DNA of 35,214 bases from Macrostomum lignano. Lineage: Eukaryota. The stretch spans positions 1 through 35,214 of the forward strand of contig NIVC01004777.1 in NCBI GenBank assembly GCA_002269645.1, given 5' to 3'. The notes beneath the pieces are model-generated. The model did no database searches. It was not told where the DNA came from and worked only from the letters and a program-made list of their open reading frames with translations. Positions 3,062 to 35,214 of the stretch are shown here, one piece after another. The first letter of the stretch is position 1. Each line of letters opens with the position of its first letter. A program made the position numbers and the translations under genes.

Positions 3062-3093
<32 letters not shown>

Positions 3094-3186: not shown

Positions 3187-3226
<40 letters not shown>

Positions 3227-3452: not shown

Positions 3453-3695
3453 CCTGAGACAGGCAAATTCTCCAGTAACTGAGAAGCTCTTTGTACAGCT
3501 CTGCACAAAGACGTGAGGCTGCGAGAATTCTGGGATCTGCAGAGCGTCATCCTCGAACGTGACATTGGCCCGGTGCCAGTGGAAACGGACTTCGCTGACT
3601 GAGCTGCCGTAGGCTCCGAGTTCGATTCGGCAGATCTGACAGTCCATGGGGAAGTCGCGCAGGTCCATCAGGCACCACAGGCGGACTTTCAGCTT
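3453..3695 (-). CDS. Cys-loop channel exon 3 (Cys-loop and loop C)
   Basis: KLKVRLWCLMDLRDFPMDCQIC gives the C-x13-C loop, and loop C is SCTKSFSVTGEFACL. Acceptor AG 3697-3696, donor GT 3452-3451; 243 nt, phase 0/0. Confidence 0.92.
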
Positions 3696-3736
3696 CTGGA
3701 TTGTTGGGGATAGGACTGCGGTGAATGGTGAATTCT

Positions 3737-4265
3737 ATTACTATTCGAATCCCAAATATAGTTACTATTCGAATCCCAATATAGTTACTATTCGAATCCC
3801 AAATATAGCTTCTATTCGAATCCCAATATAGTTACAATTCGAATCCCAAATATAGCTTCTACTCAAATCCCAATATAGTTACTATTCAAATCCCAATATA
3901 GTTTCTATTCGAATCCCAAATATAGCTTCTATTCAAATCCCAATATAGTTACTATTCGAATCCCAATATAGTTACTATTCGAATCCCAATATAGTTACTA
4001 TTCGAATTCCAAATATAGTTTCTATTCGAATCCCAATATAGTTACTATTCGAATCCCAAATATAGTTTCTATTCGAATCCCAATACAGTTACTATTCGAA
4101 TCCCAAATATAGCTTCTATTCGAATCCCAATATAGTTGCTATTCGAATCCCAATATAGTTACTCTCCGAATCCCAATACAGTTACTATTCGAATCCCAAA
4201 CATAGTTATCATTCGAATCCCAATACAGTTACTATTTGAATCCCAATATAGTTATTATTCAAACC
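3737..4265. repeat. 23/24-bp minisatellite (GTTACTATTCGAATCCCAATATA)
   Basis: Direct tandem unit. Confidence 0.93.
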
Positions 4266-4699
4266 CAATGCAACAAGCGTTTGAATCTCAACTGACTACC
4301 AATTTAGTTACTATAGTTACTATAGCTGATATAGTTCCTTTAGTTAATTGGGAAGCAGACACTGACCTGGGAAATTAAAAGATTTGCAGAGACGTTTTAA
4401 CCCGCAGCTTTTTAAAATCCTAGGCGCCGTTTAATACAGAGCAATTAAAAATGGCTAATCGTCGTGCTACACGATAATTATCGAATTGTGCACGATGTTT
4501 CTGGGTAGGGGGGGGGCTTCGGAAATCTTCTCACGAGCTCAAACATCGCTGTTCAGGATAGCCACAAAAACTGTTTGCTTGCACATTCTGGGCTTTACTA
4601 AAGTACATGTACAGTCTGGCTGCTCAGACTGAATCTCTTTGAGAAATACGAGTATTTGCCTGAGACAGGAAATTTCAGAGTTAGATTGAGAAATTAGAG

Positions 4700-5605
4700 A
4701 CGGAAAAGAGAAGAGAGAGAGGAGATAGAAGAGGAAGGGATAGGAAAGAGAGACAGGAGAGAGGGGAGAGAGAGGATATAGGGAGGAGAGAGAGGGGGGA
4801 GAGGAGAGAGAGGAAAGAAAGGAGAGAGAGGAGAGAGAGAAAGGAGAGAGAGGAGAGAGAGGAGAGAGAGAGAAAGGAGGGAGAGGAGAGAGAGAAAGGA
4901 GAGAGAGGAGAGAGAGGAGAGAGAGAAAGGAGAGAGAGGAGAGAGAGAAAGGAAAGAGAGGAGAGAGAGGAGAGAGAGAGAAAGGAGAGAGGAGAGAGAG
5001 AGAAAGGAGAGAGAGGAGAGAGAGAGAAAGGAGAGAGAGGAGAGAGAGGAGAGAGAGAGAAAGGAGAGAGAGGAGAGAGAGGAGAGAGAGAGAAAGGAGA
5101 GAGAGGAGAGAGAGAAAGGAGAGAGAGGAGAGAGAGGAGAGAGAGAGAAAGGAGAGAGAGGAGAGAGAGAGAAAGGAGAGAGAGGAGAGAGAGAGAAAGG
5201 AGAGAGAGGAGAGAAAGGAGAGAGAGAAAGGAGAGAGAGGAGAGAGAGAAAGGAGAGAGAGAGGAGAGAGAGAAAGGAGAGAGAGAGGAGAGAGAGAAAG
5301 GAGAGAGAGAAGAGAGAGGAGAGAGAGAGAAAGGAGAGAGAGGAGAGAGAGAAAGGAGAGAGAGGAGAGAGAGGAGAGAGAGAGAAAGGAGAGAGAGGAG
5401 AGAGAGAAAGGAGAGAGAGGAGAGAGAGGAGAGAGAGAAAGGAGAGAGAGGACAGAGAGGACAGAGAAAGGAGAGAGAGGAGAGAGAGGAGAGAGAGAAA
5501 GGAGAGAGAGGAGAGAGAGGAGAGAGAAAGGGGAGAGAGGAGAGAGAGGAGAGAGAGAAAGGAGAGAGAGGAGAGAGAGAAAGGAGAGAGAGGAAAGGGA
5601 GAGAG
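4700..5605. repeat. GA-rich polypurine simple repeat
   Basis: Almost exclusively G/A on the + strand; source of the Ser/Leu-rich ORF 4539-5609. Confidence 0.95.
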
Positions 5606-6202
5606 GCATTGTCAGTAAGCCGGCAGTGTTTGCTGAGCGGTCAGCCGACAGTGAACTGCAGACTGGGGCAGCACAGGCGGTTTCTGGCCATCCGGTTCTG
5701 GCAAAAATCTTATTCCGGTGTTTGCATTATTGAAAGCGAGCAAAATAATTTTTCTCTGATTTGGGAAATTTTAGGAAACGAGTGAAGCGCAAATAAAAGG
5801 CTGAAGTGTAGGGGTTTTGCGACGTGTTGGTTCAGGGAAGCGGCGGGCCGTAGGAACAACTACAGAACGCAAATCCTCTTATCCAAGTCAACTTGGAAGT
5901 TGTGGTAAACTGTCTCTGCCTTCTGTATATACAGGGTTCCTCTGTCATTGGCTTTAGGCAGTCCGGCCTTCGCGGGGGTGGTGTTAACGCTCCGGTGCCG
6001 GATTTCCTGCATTTTTTCTGCTCTCTGCTTGGAGAAGAGGGGAAGCCGATGAAAAAGTAATAAATTTTCCTGTCCATTTTACCGCCGATATTTGATCAGA
6101 CTTTTTTCTGCAACGCCTGAATGCTAAGAATGGAGAGGCAGGGTGACAAGGAAAATAATGAAAACGGGAGTGACAGACATTGTAGGGACTGTATAGGGTG
6201 AC

Positions 6203-6675
6203 AGATAGAGTAGAGTGACAGATACAGAAGAGTGACAGATACAGAAGAGTGACAGATACAGTAGTGACAGATACAGAAGAGTGACAGATACAGAAGAGTG
6301 ACAGAGATACAGTAGAGTGACAGATACAGAAGAGTGACAGATACAGAAGAGTGACAGATACAGTAGAGTGACAGATACAGAAGAGTGACAGAGATACAGT
6401 AGAGTGACAGATACAGAAGAGTGACAGATACAGTAGAGTGACAGATACAGAAGAGTGACAGAGATACAGTAGAGTGACAGATACAGAAGAGTGACAGATA
6501 CAGTAGAGTGACAGATACAGTAGAGTGACAGATACAGTAGAGTGACAGATACAGTAGAGTGACAGATACAGTAGAGTGACAGATACAGTAGAGTGTCAGA
6601 TACAGAAGAGTGACAGATACAGAAGAATGACAGATATATTAGAGTGACAGAGTGACAGATACAGAAGAGTGACAG
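6203..6675. repeat. 17/19-bp minisatellite (GTGACAGATACAGTAGA)
   Basis: Direct tandem unit. Confidence 0.92.
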
Positions 6676-7286
6676 GTGCAGTCCAGTGGCAGACATAGTA
6701 GAGTGACTGATGGTGTGAAGTGGTAGATGCAACAGGGTGACATACAATGTGGAAAGTCTCGCTATAAAGTAAAATTCTAATACACACGGAAACCAGGACC
6801 ACACAGACAGCAATAACCCAAGGCACTGAAGGCACTCACCATCAGCAGCTTTATCTGCACAGGTAATACAGTGGGAATGCCTTCAACAGTTTAGTACATT
6901 TAATACTGACTATATTCGAAATGCAGTGCCGATCCATTTGTAAATGATATCTAAGGCAGATTGTAAATTTTGGCACACAGGCTTACCACTAAGACAGATC
7001 CATCATTATTGCCCCCCGCCGCTAGTTAACTTCCACGCGGACCCCTACTGTGTTGTCAGTAGTCGAAAAATAATAAAGTTAGCTGTCTTGTACATATTGC
7101 AATTTTTTAAGATTGAACGCTGTTTTGCACGCAGCGGCGCCCTAGCTTTGTAGGGTAGACTTCTTCACCTGTTTCCTCAGAACAGAAAAGCCCATTTGCT
7201 GAAAAGCCAAAGCAACTGCGTGATGGTTAAGGGAACCTTTTTGGACCCATTCTGTAGCGAGACCAATATTGCGCTGGCGGTCAACT

Positions 7287-8037
7287 AAAGTACAAAGACT
7301 GTAGCTTCTGCTCTTTCACTAAAGTACAAAGACTGTAGCTTCTGCTCTTTCACTAAAGTACAATGACTGTAGCTTCTGCTCTTTCACTAAAGTACAATGA
7401 CTGTAGCTTCTGCTCTTTCACTAAAGTACAAAGACTGTAGCTTCTGCTCTTTCACTAAAGTACAAAGACTGTAGCTTCTGCTCTTTCACTAAAGTACAAA
7501 GACTGTAGCTTCTGCTCTTTCACTAAAGTACAATGACTGTAGCTTCTGCTCTTTCACTAAAGTACAATGACTGTAGCTTCTGCTCTTTCACTAAAGTACA
7601 ATGACTGTAGCTTCTGCTCTTTCACTAAAGTACAAAGACTGTAGCTTCTGCTCTTTCACTAAAGTACAAAGACTGTAGCTTCTGCTCTTTCACTAAAGTA
7701 CAATGACTGTAGCTTCTGCTCTTTCACTAAAGTACAATGACTGTAGCATCTGGTCTTTCACTAAAGTACAATGACTGTAGCTTCTCTCTTTCACTAAAGT
7801 ACAATGACTGTAGCATCTGGTCTTTCACTAAAGTACAATGACTGTAGCTTCTGCTCTTTCACTAAATTACAAAGACTGTAGCATCTAGTCTTTCACTAAA
7901 TTACAAAGACTGTAGCATCTGGTCTTTCACTAAATTACAAAGACTGTAGCATCTGGTCTTTCACTAAATTACAAAGACTGTAGCATCTGGTCTTTCACTA
8001 AATTACAAAGACTGTAGCATCTGGTCTTTCACTAAAG
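7287..8037. repeat. 34-bp minisatellite (AAAGTACAAAGACTGTAGCTTCTGCTCTTTCACT), about 22 copies
   Basis: Direct tandem unit; no spacers. Confidence 0.95.
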
Positions 8038-8408
8038 TCAACAGAAAAATTGCTATTTAGGCAATTGTCTGGTCTGGGAAATGCACAATCAGAATCCTAA
8101 ATAGAGTATTATGGCTCGTAGCTGCACAGCTAGGGTGGCAAAGGAATGCAAATTTTCAGTTGGCATTTTCCCGCATATCCATCTGCAACATCGGCAGCGC
8201 AGTGACTGCTGCAGAACCTGCCTTGCGAATCAAAAATCGATCGTTGCGCCAGTGACAAAAGACTGACTGCAAGGCTTGCTAATATTTGCAACAGGCCAAC
8301 ATTCTGTATAGAGATGCCCCCCCCCCCCCCCCGATACCATGGGGTCCAACCGTGCGGGGTGTCAAATATGAGTAGCTTTTGTGGGAGCTTCCGGATGAAA
8401 CGATAGAG

Positions 8409-9200
8409 GGGTTGGGATTGGATGCGATGGGATGGGAAGGGATTAAGATCGGGTGGAATGAGATCGGATGGGATGGGATGGGATGGGATCACATTGGATA
8501 GGATGGGAGGGGACGGGATGGGATGGGATTGGGATGGAATGGAATCGGGTGAGATTTTGATGGGATGGGATGGGATGGGATGTGATGGGATGGAATGGGA
8601 TGGGATGAGATGGGATGGAATGGGATGGGATGAGATGGGATGGAATGGGATGGGATGAGATGGGATGGAATGGGATGGGATGAGATGGGATGGAATGGGA
8701 TGGGATGAGATGGGATGGAATGGGATGGGATGGGATGAGATGGGATGGAATGGGATGGGATGAGATGGGATGGAATGGGATGGGATGAGATGGGATGGAA
8801 TGGAATCGGGTGAGATTTTGATGGGATGGGATGTGATGGGATGTGATGGGATGGAATGGGATGGGATGAGATGGGATGGGATGAGATGGGATGGAATGGG
8901 ATGGGATGAGATGGGATGGAATGGGATGGGATGAGATGGGATGGAATGGGATGGGATGAGATGGGATGGAATGGAATCGGGTGAGATTTTGATGGGATGG
9001 GATGGGATGTGATGGGATGGGATGGGATGTGATGGGATGGAATGGAATGGGATGGGATGAGATGGGATGGAATGGGATGGGATGAGATGGGATGGAATGG
9101 GATGGGATGTGACGGGATGGAATGGGATGGGATGAGATGGGATAGAATGGGATGGGATGAGATGGAATGGAATGGGATCGGGTGGGATGGGATGGGATGT
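8409..9200. repeat. (GGGAT/GGAAT/GAGAT)n pentanucleotide satellite
   Basis: Direct; source of the SHPIP-repeat ORFs. Confidence 0.95.
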
Positions 9201-9562
9201 GAGGATTTCAACTTGTAAACTGTCAAGTTTGGGCACAGCAAAATTGAATTCGCTGCTGTGTGAGAGCCCCGTAAGACACAAAGCTTTGGCTGCAGTTTTT
9301 CCGTGACGCGTTGTGAAAAAAATTGCTTGTGAAAGATCTTGCTTGGGGATGCAGTGTCTGCTTTGTAATGTTTGCAAAGCTAGTATATTATATCTAAAAG
9401 CCAATATCTAGCAAAGATGGCTCTGGCATCCGTGCCAGTTAATTTAATTATAATTATAAACCTTACAAAACCTTCACTGAATTGTAGAAGTGCGGCAGTA
9501 TGAAAAGAATGGAAAAAGTCAATTGTGATTTTCGGCATTGGCGGTGGAGTATTGGCGGTGGA

Positions 9563-10677
<1,115 letters not shown>

Positions 10678-10692
10678 TCAGGCTGAGTTCAC

Positions 10693-10989
10693 CTGTGAGA
10701 AGTAGATGCGCCCCGTCGGCCGCAGCTTGACCAGGATGTTGGGCACCGGATCAGCATGATTTTCCACCTGCTTTGCGTTGCGAAAGAAGATATCCGGCAT
10801 CCAGATTTTGTCTTTCATCGAGTGCAGACTGACGGAAGCGTTAGGATTGGAGGCTGAATAGGCCAAACGGGCATCCTCCCAGATCATGCGCAAGTAGATG
10901 TTCACGGTGAAGTCCATGTTCTGCACGCTCAGGGTGCTGAATGACACAATGTGCAGATTCACCAGCACGTCTGTGGCCGCCGAGCAATC
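10693..10989 (-). CDS. Cys-loop channel exon 2 (ligand-binding domain)
   Basis: DCSAATDVLVNLHIVSFSTLSVQNMDFTVNIYLRMIWEDARL...KIWMPDIFFRNAK...GRIYFSQ contains the WxPD motif. Acceptor AG 10991-10990, donor GT 10692-10691; 297 nt, phase 0/0. Confidence 0.9.
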
Positions 10990-11119
10990 CTTGAAGCATA
11001 TCAGTACCGAATTTTTAGTGCTGTGGTTCCGAAATAAATGTTTAAATTGTTGAAAGGAGTAACTTAGCCCCCAAACAAAGCATCAAATAAAATGTTGAAT
11101 CTGTGAAATGGGTGTTACT

Positions 11120-11980
11120 AAAATGAGCGTTTAAACTCTAAAAAGAGTGTTTAAACTCTGAAATGAGTATTTAAACTCTAAAATGAGTGTTTAAGCTCTG
11201 AAATGAGTGTTTAAACTCTGAAATGAGTGTTTAAACTCTGAAATGACTGTTTAAACTCTGAAATGAGTGTTTAAACTCTGAGATGAGTGTTTAAGCTCTG
11301 AAATGAGTATTTTAGCTCTAAAATGAGGTTTAAACTCTAAAATGAGGTTTAAACTCTGAAATGAGTGTTTAAACTCAAAAATGAGTGTTTAAGCTCTAAA
11401 ATGAGTGTTTAAGTTCTAAAATGAGTGTTTAAACTCTAAAAAGAGCGTTTAAACTCTAAAATGAGTGTTTAAGCTCTAAAATGAGTATTTAAGCTCTAAA
11501 ATGAGTGTTTAAACTCTGAAATGAGCGTTTTAAACTCTGAGATGAGTTTTTCAACTCTAAAATGAGTGTTTAAACTCTGAAATGAGTGTTTAAACTCTGA
11601 AATGAGTGTTTAAACTCTGAAATGACTGTTTAAACTCTGAAATGAGTGTTTAAGCTCTGAAATGAGTATTTTAGCTCTAAAATGAGGTTTAAACTCTGAA
11701 ATGAGTGTTTAAACTCAAAAATGAGTTTTTAAGCTCTAAAATGAGTATTTAAGCTCTAAAATGAGTGTTTAAACTCTGAAATGAGTGTTTAAACTCTGAA
11801 ATGAGCGTTTAAACTCTGAGATGAGTTTTTCAACTCTAAAATGAGTGTTTAAACTCTGAAATGAGTGTTTAAACTCTGAAATGGGGTTTAAACTCCAAAA
11901 TGAGTATTTAAACTCTAAAATGAGTGTTTAAGCTCTGAAATGAGTGTTTAATTTCAAGAGGGAGTGTTTAAGCTCCAAAA
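11120..11980. repeat. 20-bp minisatellite (AAATGAGTGTTTAAACTCTG)
   Basis: Direct tandem unit. Confidence 0.95.
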
Positions 11981-12083
11981 ATGGGGGCCAACCCTCCATG
12001 CCTCCTTGGCCAGCGCTTGCCTTATAAAGAGGTGACAAAAACTAACAATAGCTACAAGTGGCCAAAGTCAAGAGAGCAATTAC

Positions 12084-12296
12084 CTGGTGGTTCCGACTGT
12101 TGTTTGAAGCTGCCTGCCCAGTCCATCTGTTCAGTGGCCGGTGATTTTTGTTGTACTGTTTCGGGTCCAGCAGCGCTCCAACGATCTCTTCCTCATCAAT
12201 TGAATTGTTAACCGCGCAGGTCGCCTCGACAACAAGCAGCAATGATAAGCGGCCTTGCAAAATGAGCAACACCAGCAGCGGACGCATAGTTGACAT
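12084..12296 (-). CDS. Cys-loop channel exon 1 (signal peptide and N-terminal helix)
   Basis: Hydrophobic N-terminus MSTMRPLLVLLILQGRLSLLLVVEATC, then EEIVGALLDPKQYNKNHRP (Y-x-K-x-x-R-P). Donor CAG|GTAATT with GT at 12083-12082; 213 nt, joins exon 2 in frame. Confidence 0.85.
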
Positions 12297-12883
12297 GCGA
12301 ATAATTTTCGCTCCGCTGCTGACTCGTTGGAGAAGACAATATCGATTGAAGGGAATCCTACTGTGCGTGCTCTGGGAATATAAGTATAAAGAGGCTCCGG
12401 TCAGCCTTGTACAAGAGACAATGAAGTGCAGTGCCGCTTATGGCTTCAACCATTCAGATTTCTAATGAACTTGTTTAAGCAGACTGTCTTGGTGGCCTCG
12501 TGTGGTCCAATCGGTTCACAGAGGTTGCTTAATAAACACATGCCGAATGCCCCCCGGACTTAGCCAATAGGAGGAATGCTGACTGTTCATTGAGAGCGCA
12601 ACCCGGGCTTCCCCCAGTTTTCCCCTCCTATAGACTGATATACAGTGGCTCCTTTCAAGGCGACCCAGAACTAGAACTTGGACTAGCAGGTCTTCAGACA
12701 ATTTTAGGCTGAAAGTTTTCGACAAGTATTGACACTTTTAGTGATCAGGACTAGATATCTACGCCCCCGTAGGCCAGGGAACAAACAAAGAATATAATAA
12801 TTTTTTTAAAATAAACCACGTAGCTTTTGACCCCCCTTAAGACTTGATATTTCAGCAATTCCCCAAGTAAGTCTTGACATCTT

Positions 12884-17185: not shown

Positions 17186-17457
17186 ATACTTTCGGTACTC
17201 ATTCTGTATCCTAACGGTTAGCCCTCACGGGCGATAAGTTAAGCACAGAAGCAAAAGAAGATTCGCCACAGACCATCTGGACGGGTGTGAAAAATGTACA
17301 TTTGCACTAAATCGATAAAATCAAACAGTTTGACCATAGACATTATTCACAGGCTGCTACTGCAACAAATATATATGAGGCATTTGGAGTTCTAAAAATG
17401 ACTAATACGAGTACATAATAAGTATATATTAATCACCTAATTGCTACACAGCCTCTC

Positions 17458-18513
17458 ATGTCCACCATCAATCTGAGCTTTCGATCGCCAATTTATTCAG
17501 CTGCAGCTGGGCACGCTCGACACGACTCGTTGGTGTGGCGGCAGCTGATGAAGCGCTGCCCCGGCCCCGCCCGGCGCCACCTAAACCGGATGCGAATTCG
17601 CAGCCCGAAGCTCCGGCTGGCACTCGGCCTCCCAGCTCTGCTCCTGACGCTGATGATCGCCTCGCATCTGGCGCACCGGCTGGCCAAGGAGCTGGAGTTC
17701 TTCCCGGCCATACCGATGTTGCCCCTGCACTCGACCGGCGCCAGCGCCAGCGGCCGAGGCATCCCTCCGAGCTTCGTGCACCAGTCGTGGAAGTCGGCCA
17801 GCCTTCCAAACCGGTTCTCTGTCTGGTCGGCCAGCTGGCGCCGCTGCTTCCCGGACTGGCAGCACCGGCTGTGGACGGACGCCGACAATGCCGACTTTGT
17901 GCGTCGGAAATTTCCCGACTTCTATCCGACTTGGCGCTCGCTGCCGACAAAGATTGAGCGAGTGGACTCTGTCCGGTACCTGTACCTGTACAGCATGGGC
18001 GGCCTGTACGCCGACCTGGACTCGGAGTGCCTGCACCCGTTCCACCACCTGCTGGCCAACTGCAGCGTGGTCCTGGGCTCGATGTCCGTCGGGTCCGGCT
18101 GGACAGCTTGGCGAATGCCGTCCGGCCTTGTGCAGAACTCGCTGATGTACAGCCGGCCGGGCCAGCAGATCTGGCTGGACGCAATCCAGGAGGTTCAGCG
18201 TATCGCCAGCCAGCGCCGGTGGAGTCTGCTGACGGGCAGCTACCCGCTAGAGGAGGACCGCACCGGGCCGCTGATGCTGATGCGGCTGCTGAAGAGGAAC
18301 TGGGCAAGCTACAGTGGCTCCGTCTGTCTCTACAGGCCGGAGTTCTTCAACCCGTTTAGCTGGTTCGGCAGTGACCCAGCCTGCCGGACCCTTAACGGCA
18401 TGACGGCCGATGAGCTGGAGACCTGCCGCAGGCGCTACAACTCCAGCTACGCCATCCAGTACCACACCCAGGTGTGGCGCCACGGCAAGTCTAACATGGC
18501 CAGGGCGAGCTGA
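17458..18513 (+). CDS. DXD-motif glycosyltransferase, GT32/OCH1-SUR1-like, type II membrane protein; single coding exon
   Basis: N-terminal TM (LRLALGLPALLLTLMIASHLA), IPPSFVHQSWKS, LWTDADN, IERVDSVRYLYLYSMGGLYADLDSEC (DxD) and TGPLML. Intact 351 aa. The true start may be the later Met in MKRCPG. Confidence 0.85.
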   Translation: MSTINLSFRSPIYSAAAGHARHDSLVWRQLMKRCPGPARRHLNRMRIRSPKLRLALGLPALLLTLMIASHLAHRLAKELEFFPAIPMLPLHSTGASASGRGIPPSFVHQSWKSASLPNRFSVWSASWRRCFPDWQHRLWTDADNADFVRRKFPDFYPTWRSLPTKIERVDSVRYLYLYSMGGLYADLDSECLHPFHHLLANCSVVLGSMSVGSGWTAWRMPSGLVQNSLMYSRPGQQIWLDAIQEVQRIASQRRWSLLTGSYPLEEDRTGPLMLMRLLKRNWASYSGSVCLYRPEFFNPFSWFGSDPACRTLNGMTADELETCRRRYNSSYAIQYHTQVWRHGKSNMARAS

Positions 18514-24830: not shown

Positions 24831-25183
24831 AAGTTAGCAGATAAAGCAGTAAAAAACCACACGCACAGACACAAGCGGCTTATAACAAAGCAAGTCAGTC
24901 AATAGACAGACTGCCGCCAATACCGCAAACGATTAATTAGTTAACCTGTTTTCCAACTGTACAGCATAACCAAGGCTAAGGCACGCGCGAATCGAATCGA
25001 ACAGGACAGACATAACATGGATGCGAAAGACAGAGGGAGTAGATTTTGAAACGTGCAGTTCGTTCGAATCCAATTACAGACGAGAGAATTGACCCGTATT
25101 GCTTTTAGTAATTAATAACAAAAGAAACGTTTTTTTATTTCAACTTTATCATTTGATAAATAGTCAATATCACCTTCTGTCAG

Positions 25184-25668
25184 ATTCTGTATGACCCAGA
25201 CTGTGGATTCTGTATGACTCAGACTGAGGATTCTGTATGACCCAGACTGTAGATTCTGTATGACCCAGACTGGGGATTCTGTATGACACGAACAGGGGAA
25301 TCTGTATGACCCAGACTGGGGATTCTGTATGACCCAGACTGGGGATTCTGTATGACACAGACTGGGGATTCTGTATGACCCAGACTGTAGATTCTGTATG
25401 ACCCAGACTGGGGATTCTGTATGACACGAACAGGGGAATCTGTATGACCCAGACTGGGGATTCTGTATGACCCAGACTGGGGATTCTGTATGACACAGAC
25501 TGGGGATTCTGTATAACCCAGACAGGGGATTCTGCATGACCCAGACTGGGGATTCTGTATGACCCAGATCCTGTAGATTCTGTATGACCCAGACTGGGGA
25601 TTCTGTATGACCCAGACTAGGGATTCTGGATGACCCAGACTGGGGATTCTATATGACCCAGACTGGGG
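25184..25668. repeat. 23-bp minisatellite (GACCCAGACTGGGGATTCTGTAT), cut mid-unit by the element at 25669
   Basis: The last unit ends ...GACTGGGG|AGTAGT where ATTC would be expected. Confidence 0.92.
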
Positions 25669-25908
25669 AGTAGTAGGTAAAAGTACGAGTCTATCCCTGA
25701 GAGCACCTATTAAACATACGATTTGAAGGTCTAGTGGGGGGTACTAGGGGAAACTTAAAAAAACACAAATAAACACATCTAATCTCCCCAACAATCGAAA
25801 AAAACCAAAAACAAAATCTGAATCTAACCCCCTAGTACCCCCCACAAGACCTTCAAATCGTATGTTTAATAGGTGCACAGTCCTATACGCGTACTTTTAC
25901 CTACTACT
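25669..25908. repeat. Terminal fold-back inverted repeat, copy 1
   Basis: Arms 25669-25750 and 25829-25908 pair as a 19-bp stem, bubble (15/13 nt), 30-bp stem, one mismatch and 17-bp stem, around a loop of about 78 nt. Confidence 0.95.
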
Positions 25909-26010
25909 ACACAACCAACACTTACTAACTCTTCCAACACTTCCAACACCCACAACTCTTTCTAACCCCCGACCGCGCCGCAGGCGCTTGGGGCACAAAG
26001 GCTTTTATCT

Positions 26011-26280
26011 GATGACTAACACAGGAATTCGGGGTTCTATTCACGCTACACACAAACAAGTTTGCATTGCAACAATATAGACGGCTATAGCAAACTTTAT
26101 TCTATCGCCCGAAGGGTCGCAGACACAGTCTGATGACTAACACAGGAATTTCGGGGTCTACTCGCGCTACTCACAAACAAGCTCACATCACAACAATAGG
26201 GTCGACTATAGTAAACTTCATTTTATCACCCGAAGGGACGCAGACACAGTTTATGACTAACACAGGAATTCGGGGTCTTC
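26011..26280. repeat. Subterminal direct repeat, about 121-bp unit, 2.2 copies
   Basis: ATGACTAACACAGGAATT starts at 26012, 26133 and 26253; the units are diverged but colinear. Confidence 0.9.
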
Positions 26281-26599
26281 AAGTGCCCATTCACCCACAG
26301 CACGATATTCTGAGCCTTGCATTTTATTCAAACCAAAACGTGAGGCTAAATTTTTTTTTTGATTTTCGAAAATTTTTTCTCACGTTTTGCTCTCGCCACG
26401 TGACTAGAATGGAATGCATGAATTCTTTCTATTATCATGAAAATATATATATATATGAGCACCCCAGAGCATGAATTAGCTCACATATTTTATCTTCGCA
26501 AATTTTTCTGAGCAAGGTTGTGAGGTTCTTTGAATGCGCTTATATTGTTTTTCAGCTCTATTAGTTCTCTCAATATCTTATCATTAAGCAGCTAGTAAA

Positions 26600-27331
26600 A
26601 TGAACGACAAGGAAATTGAAAGCATTTATGAGCAATTTGAAGAGTCTAACAAAGAAAAGCAATACATCAATTGCTTTATTTTTGAATCGCCTTCCAAAAG
26701 AAAAACGCGGTTCCTTCAATGATACTTTGGTAAGCCTCGTTCATCAAGCCACCGATAAGACGATTGAGGATGACGAATCTAGTAGCAACAAGAAGAAATC
26801 AAACAAAGCCGAACAAAGTGCGAGATTCATTGTCAACTTGAAAGCGTGGCTATCTAAGCATCACACTGAGGCGATTCATATCAAGACAGACTATCGAGAG
26901 CTGGAGAAGCTGATCAAGGCTGAAATCACATCTGACGACACTGCTACTAGCTTATACGCGGAGCTATGCATCATTGAAGAAAAGGTCGATGAGATTAAGG
27001 GAGTAATTGGCGCCAAAAAGCCGACACCATCGCGTTTCTATCCGAGACTATGAGCAATCAGGAAATTCAAAGTCGTCTTAAGTGCGGCGACAACTATGTT
27101 TCACGAATGAAAACTTTCCACAAACTTTGTGAAGACTATCCGGCTCTTCGTTTCGCGCCATACGCATATAACACAATTTTGCAGTATAAAACCACCAGTG
27201 AGTCTGCTGCAAACTCAGACGAAGACTTTTGCTCGATGTTGAAGACACCTCTGACGCCACAATTCGAAGGACGCGATGACAAAATAGCAGTGGGGATCAG
27301 CCGGAAAGTTTCTATTAGCCATCGGAAATGA
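26600..27331 (+). pseudogene. Polinton hypothetical protein, probably one gene broken by indels; possible C-terminal helix-turn-helix
   Basis: ATG 26600 (MNDKEIESIYEQFEE...) shifts into ORF 26616-27053, which overlaps ORF 27050-27331 (MSNQEIQSRLKCGDNYVSRMKTFHKLCEDYPAL). Confidence 0.45.
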
Positions 27332-27685
27332 TTGATTTTATTTGTTTTAAATAACTGATAATAACTGAATCGCTTGTTTTAGCCATTATTCAATAACAGT
27401 TTATAATTCCACACCATTTTAGCCACTATCAACAGTTTTATAATGTATAACATTTATAAAGAAAAGCGCCAACTGAGTCAAACTAAACTAACACTTAACA
27501 AAATTATTTACTCTCTTACTCCTCATTGTTCCTTTTACATAGATAAATGCGGCAACTCAACTAGCGCCAATCTTTATAATTATAAAGAAAAGCGCCAATT
27601 CTAGCCACACTAAGCTCCTATGGAATCTAGCCTATTCTTTTGAGTGTTCACGCATTCATTTTTCTGTTACTAAAAATAGACAAAA

Positions 27686-29019
27686 ATGGCACACCATACG
27701 CAAGTATACAATCTGAATGAATTGCAAATAGGAGACCCAGTAGAATACCGAGGTGAGTGTCTTTTTGACATAATAGGCGCCGCAGCAAATACAATAAAAG
27801 ATAATATGCCACTAATAGCACAAGCAGGCTCAGCAGCAGGCTCTGTAACCAACGCAGTCAAGGGTGGAATAGAAGCAGCTAAGGCAGCAGAAGAGCTCAA
27901 GAAATTGAGAGAATTTAACGACACCCTCTCGCAAATAAAAGCAATAAAATATTTAAAGCTAGCACAAGAAGCTGCTCAAGCCGCACAAGCTACTGAAACA
28001 CCTACTAAAAGTAACCCATTGAGCAATAAAGATATCCAAGATTTTAATAAAATGTTGTAGTGATCCGCTAGTTGATGTTAGGCGTCCCACTTTGTCAGCA
28101 GTCTCCCTCGCCCTCGCCCTGGGTTGCTGTCTGCCGCTGGTCAGCTTCCCGCCCCCCTTGGCCCGTCTGTTGCTGCCCTTGGCCTGTTCTGCCCTTCTGC
28201 GTCTCTGTTCTCAGCCCTCAGCTTCTCTGCTGTGGGCTGTCTCTGTTTCGTTCCCGTCCCGTTTTCCTCTGTCATGTGAGCAAGTCACATGACAGACTCT
28301 GCGTTCTTCGAGTCCTAAAGTGCAGTAAACATGTTTACTGCACTCGTTGGCCCTGTTTACCGGGAGAATCACGTGCTTTCGGACCCCTCCCTTCTCTAAG
28401 GAGAGGAGTGACTCATGTTGCTAAAAATAGCAACTGAGTCACAGCCGCGTGTACTCTGGCCGGAGACCTCAAGTGACGTCAGTTCTAAAAATAGAACGAG
28501 TCACGAGGTCTTGTGCGTGGGTGTTTCCCGTCTATAAATAGGACCCCTCTCCCCTTGTTTCCGTCAAGGAGGCTTCTTATCTGCGGAGAATTCACTAAGA
28601 TCCCGTGTGCGTCAGTGTCTAACTAAGTGCCCTTTGCGTACTGAATCCGTTTGTACTGGTCTGACTGAGACCCCACTAAAGCCCAAGCCTAAGGGAGGCT
28701 AACACTGCCTTCCCAGCCACCCCTGAGCCCGGCGGGGATCTGCTGATCAGGACGCCTTGTTCATTAATCTGCAAATCTGCACGCTGTGCTGAGTTCGTTG
28801 ACTTGTTTATTTCGTTCCGACGGGAAGCTCACCTCATCGAAGGCCGAGACCTGAAGGAACTGGTGGCAGCACTACCTACGCTACTGAGAGTTGAGAGAAC
28901 TTCCCAATGAAGAGGCTCGAGTCTTAAGGTAATCCGCAAGGGCCTAATCCGGGAAGCAAACAGCCAGTATTTCAATGTTAACCACAATTAAAGGTGGAAA
29001 AGGATTAAAGAAGTTTTAG
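27686..29019 (+). CDS. Polinton small Ala/Lys-rich protein (about 136 aa) split by the solo LTR
   Basis: Removing 28056-28978 restores ...DIQDFNKML-TTIKGGKGLKKF* in frame. Confidence 0.65.
28056..28974 (+). mobile_element. Solo LTR, 919 bp, probably Ty3/Gypsy type
   Basis: TG...CA ends; 4-bp target duplication ATGT (28052-28055 and 28975-28978); GC-rich relative to flanks; TATAAATA at 28533; excision restores the interrupted ORF. Confidence 0.8.
28319..28541 (+). promoter_or_regulatory. Dense enhancer/TATA module in the solo LTR
   Basis: GTAAACA/TGTTTAC x3, CACGTG, TGACTCA/TGAGTCA, TGACGTCA, CTAAAAATAG x2 and a TATA box. Motif matches only; function inferred. Confidence 0.55.
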
Positions 29020-29029
29020 TAATATAAAA

Positions 29030-29239
29030 ATGGACTCAGATAATGATGAAAATCGCACACTTTTCATATCTGAAATAGTAGACAGTTTAAATTTAGATGA
29101 TAACAAACATAGCCACACAATTTTTAAACGAATCGATAGATTGGGTAAAAAATTGGATTATGATATTGACACGTTTAAACTTGCTAGAAAATATGCACAA
29201 AAAGGAAGACCAATCTCATTTAAGCTTAGTAATTTCTAA
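29030..29239 (+). CDS. Polinton hypothetical protein, 69 aa
   Basis: ATG in TATAAAAATG context; its 3' end overlaps the 3' end of the convergent ORF. Confidence 0.5.
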   Translation: MDSDNDENRTLFISEIVDSLNLDDNKHSHTIFKRIDRLGKKLDYDIDTFKLARKYAQKGRPISFKLSNF

Positions 29240-29690
29240 TAAAAATTTTGTTGGGATGGAAAAATCAATTCCAATATAAAATAGGGTGAAATATCGCTCG
29301 ATCATTAAATCCTGCTCGGCAGATGTTTTATATTTTTTCTGAAACTCTAATATTCTTTCACACGCTCCTTTGTAATCTTCATACCAAAAGGCATATCTTG
29401 ATCTTCTTTTTGCGCTATTTTCACATGCAACATAACTCCTAAAAGGCTCCAATTGAGAAATTGAACTATGACTCATAACTATAATTTTTTATAATTTTTT
29501 TACATCATCAATTGGTTCAGAAAACCCAAAATATAAGCCCTCTTTACCTGGCGGCTTGGAATTTTTTATATCATTTAAAACTCTTAAATAATCTTCTAAT
29601 TTAGTTTTAAACATATGTATATGTAACATTTGTATTCTCTTCCTCAAAGTATACCAAAATAACTTCAATAATATCTATAGTTTCCTTCAT
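29216..29690 (-). pseudogene. Polinton hypothetical protein (about 155 aa) with frameshifts
   Basis: ATG 29690 in TATAAAAAATG context. Segments MKETIDIIEV..., LEDYLRVLNDIKNSKPPGKEGLYFGF... and ORF 29216-29476 lie in successive frames. Confidence 0.4.
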
Positions 29691-29693
29691 TTT

Positions 29694-30265
29694 TTATACT
29701 TCAAAATATGGATAAATCTGCAAATATGAAACTCCTGGATTGCCCGAACCACCAGTAGCGGTTGTGCAAAACAATCTATAAAAAGTATAAGCAATTGTTG
29801 TATACGGTAAATTAAAATATTTAATTGCTGTTCCAACCAAACCAGCAGTAGTTGATAGTAAATCAGTCCATGTGGAGCCGTCATTACTTCCTTGAAAGAT
29901 AATATCGTTTGGGTTTTCACCACTCAATCTACCAACTAAAGAAAATCTCCAAATTTTTACTGCGCCCGGAAGTTAAATTTTCTTCATTTCCTGTTTGCTG
30001 TTTCACCATTTGTTGCCCACTCATTATCCGAAGCAAAATTCTGATTAAAAGCGCGAAATCCTTCATATCCTGTAAAATTCGTTGATGTTGTTACAAAAAA
30101 TGTGGGGTCGTTATTATCAAATAAAGTTGGAATGTGCCCATTAACATTTTTCAATCTGTCAAATTGAAACTTAGTAACGGCTTCGCTATCGTTGGTTGGA
30201 TTCGGTAGATTGGTAATAGCATTTCCACCCATATCAATTACTTGATCAATTATTCCTAAATTCAT
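29694..30265 (-). CDS. Fibre-like module 2: stalk repeat plus F5/8 type C (discoidin)-like domain; one frameshift near 29930-29985
   Basis: DMGGNAITNLPNPTNDSEAVTK stalk motif; FRAF...EWAT, FQGSNDGSTWTDL and FYRLFC parallel module 1. Confidence 0.65.
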
Positions 30266-30280
30266 TTTAAGAACCGCTGA

Positions 30281-30896
30281 TCATGAAGTCTGACGATAAA
30301 TCTGCATTGCGGATAGACCCGGATTTGTTGAACCGGATGTTGAAGTAAGACAAAATAATCTGAAATATAAATATTCTTTATCAAAATTTTGTGTGACATT
30401 AAATGTTCGGGTTGTCGATGATAATGCAGTATTTTCTGTTAGAATTAATATGTCCCAACTTGTATTGTCATTACTCCCTTCAAATCTCCATGACGCGGGG
30501 TGCTCGGTAGATGGCGATGCTCTCCCAGTCAAATCAATTTTATTACAAAGTATTGCAGATGGGCATTGAACTTTTATCCAATAATCGGTTTGAACTCCAG
30601 CAGTAGCCCAATCAGTTGTTGAATCTGCATCAAACGCTTTCCAGCTTGCAAAATCAGTTGTGTTAAATTCTGAGCTGGCTGTAATTGCAAAACCATTTCC
30701 ACTCCAATCAGCCATGGTTGGAATTTGACCAGTTTCTGTCAAATTAAATCTGTCTTGTTTCATATCTAATAAATTGTCGGTCTCTGTTTTTGTATAACCA
30801 CTAGATGTGTTTACCAAATTATCAACTTCGGTTTTGGTATATGAATCATATATTTCGTTTTAAATTTTATGAATTATCAACTTCGGTTTTGGTATA
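30281..30896 (-). CDS. Fibre-like module 1: YTKTE(V/T)DN repeats plus F5/8 type C (discoidin)-like domain; 5' part removed by the Gypsy insertion
   Basis: Three YTKTExDN repeats (the most upstream is out of frame), then ITASSEF...WKAFD...DWAT...WIKVQC...WRFEGSNDNTSWDIL...YFRLFC. Confidence 0.72.
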
Positions 30897-31104
30897 TGTT
30901 ATGTTAGAAGTCAAGGCGAGTGTGTGCGAGATACGAAACGCTTAAAGCCAGCGATGGGCAGAGAGCCGATATATATATTATTGTTTAGTCAAGTGCAGTG
31001 AGCAATGTACATTGTACGCGTCAATGGGGGACTAGGGGCAGGTGCACTGAGAGAGAAAGAGAAAGACTGCACGTCGGCTAGCCAGCATCGATCATTACAC
31101 AACA
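30897..31104 (-). mobile_element. 3' LTR of a minus-strand Ty3/Gypsy element, 208 bp
   Basis: TGTTATGT...ACACAACA inverted ends; polypurine tract AAGGAGG (minus strand, 31111-31105) directly abuts it. Confidence 0.75.
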
Positions 31105-31400
31105 CCTCCTTACATTGAAAAGTACGAATATAATGGCACGAAAATAGTAGCACGAATAGAGTCGCACGAAAACAGTTGAATGGGGAAAAATAAAAACATT
31201 GAAATATTTTACGATCATATGGAACAATACAATATTAATGTTGAAAAATATCATTTTAGACCGCTTTTTAAATCGCACGCTTGAGCAGCAAAGGCAACAC
31301 ATCAACTTATGCTATACCTCCTTTCACCAAAATTATAGAAACTTAAAAAGAGCTTTCAGTTCCTTTAAATTCAGTCAACAGTCAGTTTTCACTCAAAAGT

Positions 31401-32888
31401 TCACCACGAGGCCTGGTACCTCTGCGGCTGATGGACAAGCCGACCTCGCTTGGTCCGGAACCCAGAGTCGTCCGAGCTTGAGCACGGTTGCACAGATGCC
31501 GGCTGCTCAGCTGGCTGCACTGGCTCTGCAGGCTGCTCTGTCGCGGGTTGCACGGCCGGTTGCACGGGTGCCTGCTGGTCGTCCGCCTCCGACAGATTGA
31601 CATCCTCATCAGCCACTGCCACTGGGTAGCTTTCATGGAATGGCACGCCGATCTCACGTGGCCTGATAAACCGCCGGTTGCGCCTGAGCAGCTGGCCCGA
31701 CTCCGTGCGAAGCCAGTACGACCGCGGGCTGCCGTCCACCTCGCTGTCGACCTCGGCAGCCACCCAGTTCCGACGATCGCACTGAAGCCAGACCGGCTCG
31801 CCGACCTCCAAGCGTCGAAGTGCGCGCGCACCGCGGTTGCAGAGCTGAGCTGCCCGGGTCCGCTCCTTCTGGAATGCTTCGATGCTGGCATGCACGTAGG
31901 TCTCCCGAGGCCGCAGATCTTGCACCGTTGTCGGCAGGTCGCACCGCAGTTTCCGGCCAAACGCCATTTCCGCCGGGCTGGGGAAGCCGCTGCCGACCGG
32001 CGTGTTGCGATAGTGCAAAAGGGCCAGTGCCAGGCTCTGTCCAGTCTCCTGGCACTTCTTCATCATATTCTTGGCAGTCTGCACATATCGCTCTGCTTTG
32101 CCGTTGGACTGCGGGTAGGCCGGACTCGATGTCCGGTGCTCCACTTGAAATCTGGTCATGAACTGGCGGAACTCTCCTGCGGTGAACTGCGGCCCGTTGT
32201 CACTGATGAGCTTCTCTGGCACTCCAAAGTTCTGGAAATGGTCTTGGAGCACCTGAACTACTGCCAGGCTTGTTGTCGACCGCAGGCGGGTGATGCTCAT
32301 CCAGTGGCTGTAGGCGTCTACGTACACCAGGTGCGCAGCGCCCCGGAACTCGAACAAGTCGGTCGAGCAGACTTGGAACGGAAACTCGGGCATTTCAACG
32401 GTCATCAAAGTCTCCTTTGACTGGGCCTTCATGTTACGCTGGCAGGCCTCGCACTGGCTGACAGTTCGCTCGATGCAGGTGCGCATTCCTGGCCAGTAAA
32501 AATAATCTTTGGCTTTCAGGTCCATCTTGACGATTCCAGGGTGTCCAGCGTGCAAAATTCTTAGGATCGAGCTTCTGGCGCTGCCGGCTGGCACGTAGAT
32601 GCGGTCCTTCAGGCACAGGAGTCCTGAGACGAAAGTCAGATCATGGCGAAGATCCCAAAATACTCTCAAATCGTCAGGTAATCGGTTTCGATGCTCGGGC
32701 CATCCGGCTTGAATGACCTCCTGCAGACGCTGGCTCGTCTGGTCTGCAGCCGTGGCCTTCTTGATCATTGTCAGAATCTCGCGGTCTCCACTGAAGCATC
32801 GCTCCACAGCTAGCACTTGTCCGTCCAAAGCTTCCTCCAGCAGAAGCGTCAGGCTGTCCGTCTTTCCGTGAGCTCGGCTTAGCGTGTC
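31401..32888 (-). mobile_element. Ty3/Gypsy pol 3' part (end of RNase H, HHCC zinc finger, DDE integrase); cut at 32888
   Basis: DTLSRA, LHAGH...WPGM...CEAC, STDLF / SDNGPQF / NGKAER, and C-terminal RTKRGRLVHQPQRY. The frame is intact for about 495 codons. Confidence 0.93.
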
Positions 32889-33164
32889 AGTAGTATGTAA
32901 AAGTACGCTTCTAGCCCCAGAGCCCTTTTCAAACAGACGATTTGAAGGGCTAGAGGGGGGACACGAGGGGGAACCAAAAAACACTCTTAAACACCCTTTA
33001 TCCCCATCCAACACCCCCAACACCCCCAACACTACACAATACTACTAACACCACCCAATACTACTAACACTTCCAAACAATTCCCTCGCGTCCCCCCATT
33101 ATTAGCCCTTCAAATCATCTGTTTGAATAGTGACTGATCTAGAAGCGTACTTTTACATACTACT
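32889..33164. repeat. Terminal fold-back inverted repeat, copy 2
   Basis: 26-bp perfect stem, bubble, 25-bp stem with one mismatch and an imperfect G/C stem; loop about 32974-33080. Confidence 0.95.
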
Positions 33165-33219
33165 ACTTATAACCCCAGGCCGCGCCGCAGGCGCGAAGGG
33201 TCTTTTTCTGTTACTAAAA

Positions 33220-33522
33220 ATGAACCGAGTTTACACCTTTTCAGTTAGCGATACTTTTGAGACTGTTGCTAAAAATTCAGAGATTATAAAACAACATATT
33301 TTGAATGGAATAATTGATGAAGTTTATTTAAAATATGACGATAAGCACGAACTAAAACTTTATCCGTTAGAGTTGGATGGTTTGTATGATCTAGAACAAG
33401 AGGGTGAGTTAATATTTCAACTTGGAGATTATTTAAATTCGGATGATTGGGAGGTTCGTTCAGATGATTCCAATTCAACAAATAGTTCATATGAAACCAG
33501 CGATTCAGAAAATTATTGTTAA
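33220..33522 (+). CDS. Polinton acidic hypothetical protein, about 100 aa
   Basis: ATG 33220 in AAAAATG context. The listed upstream extension from 33130 is hairpin sequence. Confidence 0.55.
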   Translation: MNRVYTFSVSDTFETVAKNSEIIKQHILNGIIDEVYLKYDDKHELKLYPLELDGLYDLEQEGELIFQLGDYLNSDDWEVRSDDSNSTNSSYETSDSENYC

Positions 33523-33537
33523 AAAAATATATAAAAA

Positions 33538-33771
33538 ATGAAGGTAAATCGTATCAACGATACGCATGCAAAGCATGATTATTCCTACATTGGATATGTG
33601 CCAATTAATGAACTTAATGAAAATTTAAGTTTGATAACAGTTGAACAAATGTCAATAATAATATTAGTAACAATAATAGTGATAATTTTGTTTTTATTTG
33701 TTATAAAAATTTATTACCATGTTGTCTTAAGTAATTATTATTTAAAAAATAAACTAGAAAATGAGGTCTGA
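33538..33771 (+). CDS. Small single-TM protein, 77 aa
   Basis: TATAAAAAATG start; hydrophobic IIILVTIIVIILFLFVIKIYY. Confidence 0.6.
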   Translation: MKVNRINDTHAKHDYSYIGYVPINELNENLSLITVEQMSIIILVTIIVIILFLFVIKIYYHVVLSNYYLKNKLENEV

Positions 33772-34150
33772 TTTTGCAAACAATTATGCCAGCACTTATG
33801 ACAGCGCCCATCCTATAGCAGAACCGCCCCTTTTATTTGATAAACACAAAGATTGTAAAGAAAAGGATGCTAACGACCTAACTGAAGCGAAATTCAATCT
33901 AAAGATTATAATTGCTATTATTTTACTAGTCTTACTTGAGATGATTATTTTTCCCGCCTTATTTTTATCTAAAAAATTAAATATAGAAGGAATACCATAT
34001 AATGAAAGAAATATAAACTTCGCAATAGCATTAATAGCAATATCAAGTACATTACTAATAATTGCATTACTTATATTAATTATTACAATTTCAATACTGC
34101 TTAATGATAAACGAAAACAACATAACTCCCTAGCTTCATTTAAAGTCTAA
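33761..34150 (+). CDS. Two-TM membrane protein, 129 aa
   Basis: Two long hydrophobic segments; overlaps the upstream stop and ends 1 nt from the integrase stop. Confidence 0.65.
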   Translation: MRSDFANNYASTYDSAHPIAEPPLLFDKHKDCKEKDANDLTEAKFNLKIIIAIILLVLLEMIIFPALFLSKKLNIEGIPYNERNINFAIALIAISSTLLIIALLILIITISILLNDKRKQHNSLASFKV

Positions 34151-34151
34151 A

Positions 34152-35214
34152 TTAAACTAACATTAGCTGGTTCTCATAAAACGAACCTAATATTTCTTCA
34201 CCATCCTTATCAGCAATGATATAGGTTGTGGGATTTGTATTTAAAACTTTACTGATAGTAAATTTCTCACTTATTTTCCAATATCCTTTTCTTCCCTTTT
34301 CAAACTTATCTTTCCATTTATAGATATACACAGAATCACCAACCTTAAAAGGTTTCTTTTTATTTTTTTCAAAGTCCCCGAAGGTAACATTAACATTTTC
34401 AGGCTTGTTATAAGCTTGTTGAGGAGTCATCTTTATAGCTGAATGATATGAATTGTTATAATCTTTCACTACGTCTGGTAATATTTTTACCCATTTTTGG
34501 TTTCCATTCAAACTAAACTGAAACCATAATTTTTTACCTAAAGTTCGATTAAATCTTTCTATTAATGCGTTTTTGCTTTCTCCATAAATAGAATAAATTT
34601 TATTAATATACTCCCCATTCGCGTCCTTTTTCCTTTCTTGTCCTTTTTCAAAATGATACAATTTATACATGTGAGGATTGTAAAATTCTTTTCCTTCGTC
34701 AACACACAACCTTTCACTTCTTTCTCCAAGGCTTCTAAAAGCAGCAGCAACCTCCTCTCCCTTTTTGGATTTTAAAGGAACAGCCCACGCGTATCGAGTA
34801 AAACCATCTAATATGGTTAAGATATATTTATATCCTCTATCGTTCGGCATTGACATTAAATCAGCATACCAAATTTCATTCTTTTTGAAGTTCATGATTT
34901 TTCTATAAAATTTAGGTTTTCGGTATTCTTTATGAAGAACTTTTGCCTCATCAGAACTTAACCCACTACCACTTAACAACAAACAGTCAACACAATTATT
35001 TCCATGTTGGTTGTAATTAATTCCTAAACCAAATTTAACTTTAGATTGCAAGATCTTTTTAACCATCCACCGAGTTAATCTTTGGCTTACCGATAAGCCC
35101 TGTAGATTATCTAATCCTTGAATCATCTTTTTATCGGCTTCATGTTTTAATCTTAATGCTTCCTCGGGAGTATCTTGTCAGCATCTCTGTATGCTAAGTC
35201 ATGATAATATGCTA
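34152..35214 (-). CDS. Maverick/Polinton retroviral-like integrase with an upstream parvovirus-type PLA2-like segment (one indel near 35177; 5' end outside window)
   Basis: LHKEYRK, WYADLM, YILTILDGFTRYAWAVPLKSK, VDEGKEFYN, IERFNRTL, YNNSYHSAIKMTP and FKVGDSV (DDE). Upstream: AYYHDLAYRDADK/DTPEEALRLKHEADKKMIQGL. Confidence 0.92.

Follow-up and report, generated by a model that had tools for sequence, protein, structure and literature searches.

A self-pairing fold-back end inherited by two probable Polinton-type elements of Macrostomum lignano

The stretch of Macrostomum lignano DNA analysed here (contig NIVC01004777.1, 35,214 nt in full; hereafter the window) contains two elements, A and B, which probably belong to one Polinton-type lineage and each of which begins with a terminus that pairs with an inverted copy of itself placed just inside the same end. 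This fold-back end is real and constitutes an inherited structure: two independent insertions start with it, and in both of them the arms have been kept complementary. It has a partial precedent among protist elements, and we infer a function for it as follows: with a probability of roughly 0.4, each such end, once its strand has been displaced and is single, would make a duplex origin anew on the spot, at which protein-primed synthesis could restart and the end be repaired. A self-pairing end, preserved through matched changes in two elements and with a counterpart in a third, distant one, presents a concrete cis-element with sharp predictions.

End A occupies positions 25669-25908 and bears out what the initial annotation had described there, namely a 240-nt fold-back with stems of 19, 30 and 17 bp, a defined bubble and a 78-nt spacing. 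Its outer arm (25669-25750, plus strand) opens with the Polinton motif AGTAGT, the first base being ambiguous by 1 nt against a host minisatellite of 23-bp units (25183-25668, plus strand), which is the insertion site of element A and flanks it from outside. The inner arm (25829-25908, minus strand) repeats the first ~82 nt in inverted form and terminates in ACTACT. The two arms are complementary at 73 of 82 positions (89% by blastn, E 4e-25), with the pairing divided into stems of 19 bp (25669-25687 with 25890-25908), 30 bp (25703-25732 with 25847-25876) and 17 bp (25734-25750 with 25829-25845); the first of these is followed by a bubble of 15 x 13 nt, whose outer side (25688-25702, plus strand) faces 25877-25889, and a single A.A mismatch separates the other two. 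As DNA, the unit folds at -70.9 kcal/mol, compared to -16.1 +/- 3.2 kcal/mol for 200 dinucleotide shuffles, none of which was as stable (z -17.2). The pairing reaches base 1, with 19 of the outermost 19 nt paired. Between the arms lies an A/C-rich loop of 78 nt (25751-25828, plus strand) with two G, for which structure is predicted on neither strand. Further inward are a G-free spacer (25909-25960, plus strand) and a mini-hairpin with a GNA triloop, GCGCC-GCA-GGCGC (25975-25987, plus strand), which is conserved in end B.

The second fold-back, end B (32889-33164), is absent from the initial annotation. It is homologous to end A, at 79% identity over 109 nt in a comparison of the window with itself, folds at -62.5 kcal/mol (z -15.8, with 0 of 200 shuffles as stable), and is paired all the way to base 1 (26 of the outermost 26 nt). 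The outer arm (32889-32971, plus strand) starts with AGTAGT, and the inner arm (33083-33164, minus strand) terminates in ACTACT followed by one extra ACT; they enclose an A/C-rich loop of ~110 nt (32972-33082, plus strand) with zero G between 32974 and 33080, and are followed by a mini-hairpin, CGCGCC-GCA-GGCGCG (33181-33195, plus strand). Position 32889, where this AGTAGT starts, marks the boundary of an insertion, since the alignment of a Gypsy pol homologue breaks there: the pol gene is interrupted exactly at this motif, with the homologue aligning from residues encoded just below 32889 and the residues upstream remaining unmatched, while two residues encoded within end B that also match the homologue are taken as chance. 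Two further copies of the terminal 8-mer AGTAGTAT occur within the loop on the minus strand (33039-33065). A G-quadruplex in the loop was considered and set aside as unconserved, because the four G-runs, as judged by eye, are present on the minus strand of end B only and none is seen in A.

A comparison of the two ends reveals greater conservation in the arms than in the loops. The terminal 19 nt are identical at 18 positions, and a search with this 19-mer allowing up to four mismatches recovers exactly four sites in the window, which are the four arms. When these are aligned, 12 columns are element-specific, i.e., shared by both arms of one element, versus a single side-specific column, with the same outcome under three alignment modes, and 9 of 66 pairs are changed on both sides between A and B (RNAalifold), some of these element-specific or doubly changed columns adjoining gaps. 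Within the 41 gap-free columns of the unambiguous blocks, the outer arms differ three times, and every one of these differences has its match in the inner arms (expected overlap 0.37, P 0.0009). The bubble lies at the same position in both ends; the core of its outer side in A is closest to the same side in B, with 9 of 12 positions alike as against 5-7 of 10-12 for other pairs in this segment picked post hoc, which is suggestive of conservation of that side. The loops differ in both length and sequence and are unstructured on both strands, with a G content of 2 in 78 nt and 0 in 107 nt, respectively, a skew that 24 windows reach when element DNA is divided into 5713 windows of 78 nt. Part of the spacer of A (25933-25959) matches the loop repeats of B (33007-33033) in the same orientation (E 0.007 in the self-comparison), and the GCA-loop mini-hairpins just inside the two ends are the two longest-stemmed among the 10 sites listed on the plus strand. 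Beyond the inner arm, the homology extends through a GC box into a common gene-start motif, identical over 19 nt (27659-27677 in A and 33203-33221 in B). As a separate observation, AAAATG-type starts recur at several genes of the elements, and the 19-nt motif might be an element promoter or initiator. It may also be recorded that the bases next to the inner arm are AC in A as well as in B (25909-25910 and 33165-33166), which continues the ACT repeat and would be the first bases added on extension of a folded 3' end.

Since the arms co-evolve and the same design recurs in end B, the fold-back is an inherited structure rather than an artefact or, very probably, a MITE. The window is rich in repeats, and sequencing reads are known to form fold-back chimeras; nevertheless, the chance that we are dealing with an assembly or read chimera is practically negligible, as the arms agree at no more than 89% and enclose a defined bubble, and an independently inserted end of 79% identity repeats the design with matched changes of its own. 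Thus, a fold-back read chimera, against which the initial annotation had cautioned, is excluded by end B. The unit also has its own inverted ends (AGTAGT...ACTACT), as would a MITE-like mini-element sitting separately ahead of each Polinton; however, the prospects of this reading are slim indeed, because neither unit is surrounded by a target-site duplication (offsets 0-3), no outer Polinton end is found upstream of either, and A and B remain homologous beyond the inner arm, through the GC box and gene-start motif. In the window, each unit is joined to the body of an element. For want of a target-site duplication around the unit, a mini-element is not demonstrated, which weakens the mini-replicon entertained in the initial annotation.

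On the identity of the elements, the AGTAGT starts, the exact boundary, the PLA2X-type integrase and the common gene-start motif point to A and B as Polinton-type ends, in keeping with the Polinton-like terminus of the initial annotation. The end motif 5'-(AGT)2, the commonest end motif of vertebrate Mavericks (PMC8097293, in the part of the text available), is present at both 25669 and 32889. About 1 kb inward of end B lies an integrase gene of the rve type (34152-35177, minus strand), its frame broken near the 5' end, with an rve match slightly below the cut-off (E 1.7e-7, 31.9 versus 32.6 bits). It has 433 homologues, and in 41 of the 120 that are listed the integrase is fused to a PLA2-like domain (PF08398), a fusion which the available portion of Starrett et al. 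(PMC8502044) treats as the hallmark of one adintovirus class, PLA2X; the integrase of B further matches those from loci with capsid and pPolB genes. The two ends are 79% identical and share the GC box and the identical 19-nt motif, which places them in one lineage. Hence, A and B are best seen as the ends of related Polinton-type elements that inserted independently, a membership which the sequence establishes in part.

The remaining gene content is that of incomplete elements. Element A displays a 121-bp tandem repeat of 2.2 copies (26008-26278, plus strand) that is absent from B, each unit of which opens with a TGATGACTAA motif and two copies of which have a CCC-GAA-GGG mini-hairpin. This is followed by a first coding stretch, split into frames, with no family match (26600-27331, plus strand), a small gene for an amphipathic protein (27686-28060, plus strand) with five short unnamed homologues that terminate in a KxGKGL-type tail, and fragmented F5/8-domain and fibre-repeat-like genes (29694-30859, minus strand). 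The small amphipathic protein may resemble the membrane-active proteins of adintoviruses; the best hit of its profile among 344 ORFs of Polinton loci is not significant (E 0.33), atlas searches with two element A genes gave no usable match, and cluster look-ups supplied no names. The gene types seen in the portions of the elements within the window are accessory ones only (fibre-like F5/8 and small amphipathic). No integrase was seen in the portion of element A in the window, and there is no polymerase ORF in 25669-35214, A being broken by nested insertions and B by the window edge. None of the window ORFs significantly matches the capsid, packaging ATPase or protease genes of 12 Polinton loci, and a Pfam scan of 16 ORFs of the window revealed no HUH replication-initiator nuclease, both results pertaining to incomplete elements. 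A search of the window for far ends returned no ACTACT with either of the left-flank hexamers behind it and no point at which the minisatellite is taken up again.

The region 25669-35214 exhibits a four-layered nesting: the minisatellite received the Polinton-type element A, within which are a GC-rich insertion and a Gypsy-like retrotransposon, with the Polinton-type element B in turn inside the Gypsy pol. The GC-rich insertion (approximately 28055-28988, ~0.93 kb) interrupts the small amphipathic gene near its end, appears by eye to be LTR-like with a short internal stretch, and contains a perfect 26-bp palindrome (28319-28344). The pol remnant (31404-32888, minus strand), which was inserted in A and cut by B, encodes the end of the RNase H region and an integrase. 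The order of nesting suggests that A is older than the Gypsy copy, which is older than B. The surrounding DNA is that of an animal, with ligand-gated ion-channel exons among many minisatellites: the exons lie at 540-12437 on the minus strand, with their introns filled by various minisatellites, and a GC-rich, intronless glycosyltransferase ORF (17422-18513, PF04488) is situated on the strand opposite to the nearby ion-channel exons. A scan for sigma-70 promoters and terminators yielded nothing, the model being irrelevant for animal DNA.

The initial annotation had called for AGTAGT ends elsewhere to be examined for the fold-back, and other Polintons provide a mixed answer. We used 16 loci from host DNA binned into bacterial genomes, of which 11 were recovered as integrase matches by tblastn and a twelfth by phmmer, the other 4 being unrelated chance matches. 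The 12 contigs (L002-L005, L007-L010 and L013-L016), from bacterial and archaeal species-representative bins, encode eukaryotic Polinton integrases and in all likelihood represent contaminating host DNA. In these loci and the window, each AGTAGT backed by 150 nt or more was tested for an inverted match of the first 60 nt within the next 400 nt (47 sites, those nearer to a contig end being dropped). Of the 47, 6 beat all 1000 shuffles: five belong to A and B, and the sixth to L016. In L016, which has integrase, capsid-like and protease-like genes (the last a weak match, E 0.03), the AGTAGT is followed by a perfect 20-bp arm whose partner lies ~120 nt further in (z -6.3), while the outermost 6 nt stay single-stranded. 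Beyond the end motif, L016 shows no homology to ends A and B in the sequences tested, and its fold-back may therefore be independent of theirs. Counting the putative ends of L005, L008, L013 and L016, which were assigned by position alone without a confirming second end, the fold-back occurs at one of four ends of distant Polintons, in the shorter form of L016, and was not seen in L005, L008 or L013. It is thus not universal among Polintons, although it is found beyond this window, and the three ends without it indicate that it is dispensable for Polinton replication generally. At L008, a 364-nt fold-back (10498-10861) flanks the putative Polinton end on the outside, its last bases being the AGTAGT of that end; this is probably a host MITE and we do not count it as support. 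L005, a relative of B, contains a long ORF (3-2066) with Rho_N and endonuclease VII domains (PF02945, 24.0 bits against a 23.6 cut-off), which we take to be probably the front of a polymerase gene and which is a candidate resolver of branched DNA. A scan of bacterial and archaeal contigs for a close relative with DNA context, based on an alignment of close integrases, gave 95 pattern matches, with 0 confirmed, and searches against phages and plasmids with the end sequence, the integrase and a Polinton capsid protein produced no match.

Concerted change of the arms is by itself no proof of selection. Quasi-palindrome correction is a known process that gives concerted change unaided. Accordingly, the fold-back might be a functionless by-product, in which the end was once duplicated in an ancestor by copy-back (a template switch), the arms having since been homogenised by recurrent intra-strand switching or mismatch repair. 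Such correction would produce matched arms, three of the four distant ends do without the structure, and accidental annealing is offered as an alternative for the palindromes of Halocafeteria elements in the part of that preprint available (10.64898/2026.07.28.741278). We nonetheless regard this origin as rather unlikely: the bubble, which correction should erase, is kept at the same place with its outer side 9/12 alike, and the loops diverge yet stay G-poor and unstructured, with the arms conserved above them.

In the standing model of Polinton replication, an excised single strand pairs its two TIRs, which lie 15-20 kb apart on that strand, and is copied by protein priming (PMC4196379; 10.64898/2026.07.28.741278, both as far as the portions consulted go); direct observation of Polintons leaving the chromosome or copying themselves was not encountered in the parts of the literature covered. 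A displaced or excised strand would thus normally bring together two distant ends, as a racket or panhandle, to rebuild a duplex origin. Briefly, we envisage the following for fold-back ends. The terminal ~82 nt would pair with the inner copy across the unstructured loop, generating a duplex stem based at the first nucleotide of the element. The terminal protein and polymerase would start on the AGT repeats at this stem, displacing the inner arm, which would also be the template for restoring nibbled 3' ends and correcting mismatches. This templating would account for both the co-evolving arms and the perfect outermost 19-26 bp. More speculatively, the bubble and the GCA mini-hairpin could be melting or protein-binding features. 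We infer that the fold-back acts on single-stranded DNA, and the GNA-triloop hairpin, being a single-strand motif, counts in favor of this. The (AGT)2 end motif has been tied to jumping-back protein priming (PMC8097293, in the portion seen), and the unpaired terminal 6 nt of L016 suit protein priming and not self-priming. A precedent is Streptomyces, in which protein-primed telomeres form fold-backs that act as templates when the ends are repaired, although it is a short hairpin rather than long-range (Rabbit Ears) pairing that is used for repair, which counts against our proposal (PMC5449611, in the part available). In a model assuming a perfect mirror end, pairing of the two ends in full yields -421 kcal/mol, a much greater stability than the -155 kcal/mol of a pair of local folds, such that the latter could be just kinetic intermediates. 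Four roles had been put forward in the initial annotation, of which none is demonstrated; local re-formation of a duplex origin, a fifth, fits best.

Because the 3' end of A and of B is paired throughout, it lends itself to self-priming, and this is a point against local re-formation of a protein-primed origin. On such an account, the paired 3' end (...ACTACT-OH) would prime synthesis into the element body in the manner of parvoviruses, with nicking to follow, and protein priming would be secondary or lost. The geometry is exact in A and B, with the 3' end paired to its last base, and accommodates this as well as it does a local origin. The conserved bubble is reminiscent of the mismatches in poxvirus and parvovirus hairpins, to which it can be likened, and the endonuclease VII domain of the B-related locus L005 could resolve branched DNA. 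The same mode of priming has been proposed for the 52-nt terminal palindromes of Halocafeteria virophages and PLVs (10.64898/2026.07.28.741278, in the part available), but those were sought with gaps of at most 10 nt, unlike the loops of 78-110 nt found here. Further, the (AGT)2 protein-priming motif is retained, the 3' end of L016 is unpaired, and L005, with its nuclease domain, lacks a terminal fold-back. The flip-flop end suggested in the initial annotation was also not seen: the loop and bubble have the same orientation in both ends (n=2), and the loop repeats of B match the spacer of A in the same orientation. We therefore judge self-priming to be unlikely.

Re-formation of the origin on a single strand has also to be weighed against roles for the fold-back in double-stranded DNA or RNA. 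In the former, the inner arm would offer integrase or origin proteins an additional site, in inverted orientation, for binding or cutting, enabling synapsis, cruciform excision or release of a 240-276-bp mini-replicon. The conservation of the arm sequence (18/19 terminal nt between A and B), the two additional AGTAGTAT copies in the loop of B, and the coincidence of the stem base with the element boundary, as expected of an excision signal, are all consistent with this. However, binding sites need neither 66 bp of matched pairing nor double changes at the variable positions, and the window has no free-standing unit or unit with a target-site duplication; hence, we consider such a role quite improbable. 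In the case of RNA, transcription through the end would yield a dsRNA decoy or small-RNA precursor, and the RNA fold is indeed very stable on either strand (-109 to -133 kcal/mol). Against this, the pairing stops exactly at the DNA boundary, a transcript would require a host promoter, and none of five weak Rfam matches in 25000-35214 reaches its gathering score, the best being a generic hairpin at 32.8 versus 65.3 bits. Mismatches of the G.U type are without strand bias, the counts being uninformative (1 plus, 2 minus, 3 other). Thus, the decoy of the initial annotation is unsupported, and a function as RNA is very unlikely.

A wider reading, which we offer tentatively and with considerable doubt, is that in a subset of animal Polintons spanning distant lineages a selected fold-back at each end replaces the racket, with the ends being their own origin and repair template, or even primer, and the elements thus hybrids of protein- and hairpin-primed replicons. 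The complementary A/C-rich and G/T-rich loops could then pair first, converting two hairpins into a panhandle and providing a switch between replication and integration. If true, this would imply a selected origin or primer common to distant animal Polintons. TIR screens that require a long loop, or a gap of at most 10 nt, cannot detect the fold-back, which may consequently be widespread and overlooked. The initial annotation held that it falls outside the standard description of Polintons. This stands for animal Polintons, with no terminal fold-back described in the literature surveyed, whose scope did not extend to the founding papers, Repbase and preprint supplements; it has to be qualified by the terminal palindromes already known from protist virophages and PLVs. 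Specifically, hairpins or palindromes are not mentioned in the available main texts on animal Polintons (PMC8502044, PMC8097293, PMC11131425, PMC10748475, 10.1101/2022.07.12.499685, 10.1101/2024.01.15.575659), nor in those on protist elements (PMC8547959, PMC12220804); portions of the literature on related elements were also consulted for terminal structures (PMC11296320, PMC8363768), and word searches of supplements supplied no end sequences for comparison.

Among known systems, parvovirus hairpins and poxvirus telomeres have a 3' end paired to the last base and conserved stem mismatches, need an HUH nickase or a resolvase, and have flip/flop ends. Ends A and B share the 3'-end pairing and the stem mismatches with these, but have a far longer loop, and neither such a gene nor flip/flop was seen here. 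The bidnaviruses combine single-stranded linear DNA and TIRs with a Polinton-derived protein-primed polymerase, and their TIRs are stated, in the portion of the source available, not to form parvovirus-like hairpins (PMC4061559). The PLA2X animal Polintons or Mavericks, on the available descriptions (PMC8097293, PMC8502044), resemble A and B in the AGTAGT motif, an rve integrase with PLA2-fused homologues, fibre-like genes and the sharp boundary; in contrast, the TIRs described for them pair one end of a 13-25 kb element with the other, whereas here each end has its own inverted copy of ~82 nt. A close report concerns the endogenous virophages of Halocafeteria seosinensis and PLV subtype 4, with terminal palindromes inside the TIRs for which hairpin priming was proposed (10.64898/2026.07.28.741278, in the part available): like A and B, these are self-complementary, adjoin the insertion boundary and occur in elements that have an rve integrase and come from the same wide group of viruses. 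They differ in the protist host, the 52-nt palindromes defined with a gap limit of 10, and the mostly non-pPolB replication genes, as against an animal Polinton type with ~82-nt arms, an open loop of 78-110 nt, a conserved bubble and matched changes. By the definition applied to Halocafeteria (a palindrome of at least 20 bp with a gap of at most 10 nt within a TIR), A and B lie at the boundary but have gaps of 78 and ~110 nt. Finally, the telomeres of Streptomyces, as far as the portion of PMC5449611 seen describes them, are likewise ends of protein-primed linear DNA with a single-stranded 3' end that folds back and GNA-loop mini-hairpins; they are bacterial, possess several short palindromes, employ Tap/Tpg and patch the end after internal initiation. 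The resemblance is one of working principle and not of homology, and in this sense they are the nearest working analogue of the fold-back ends reported here.
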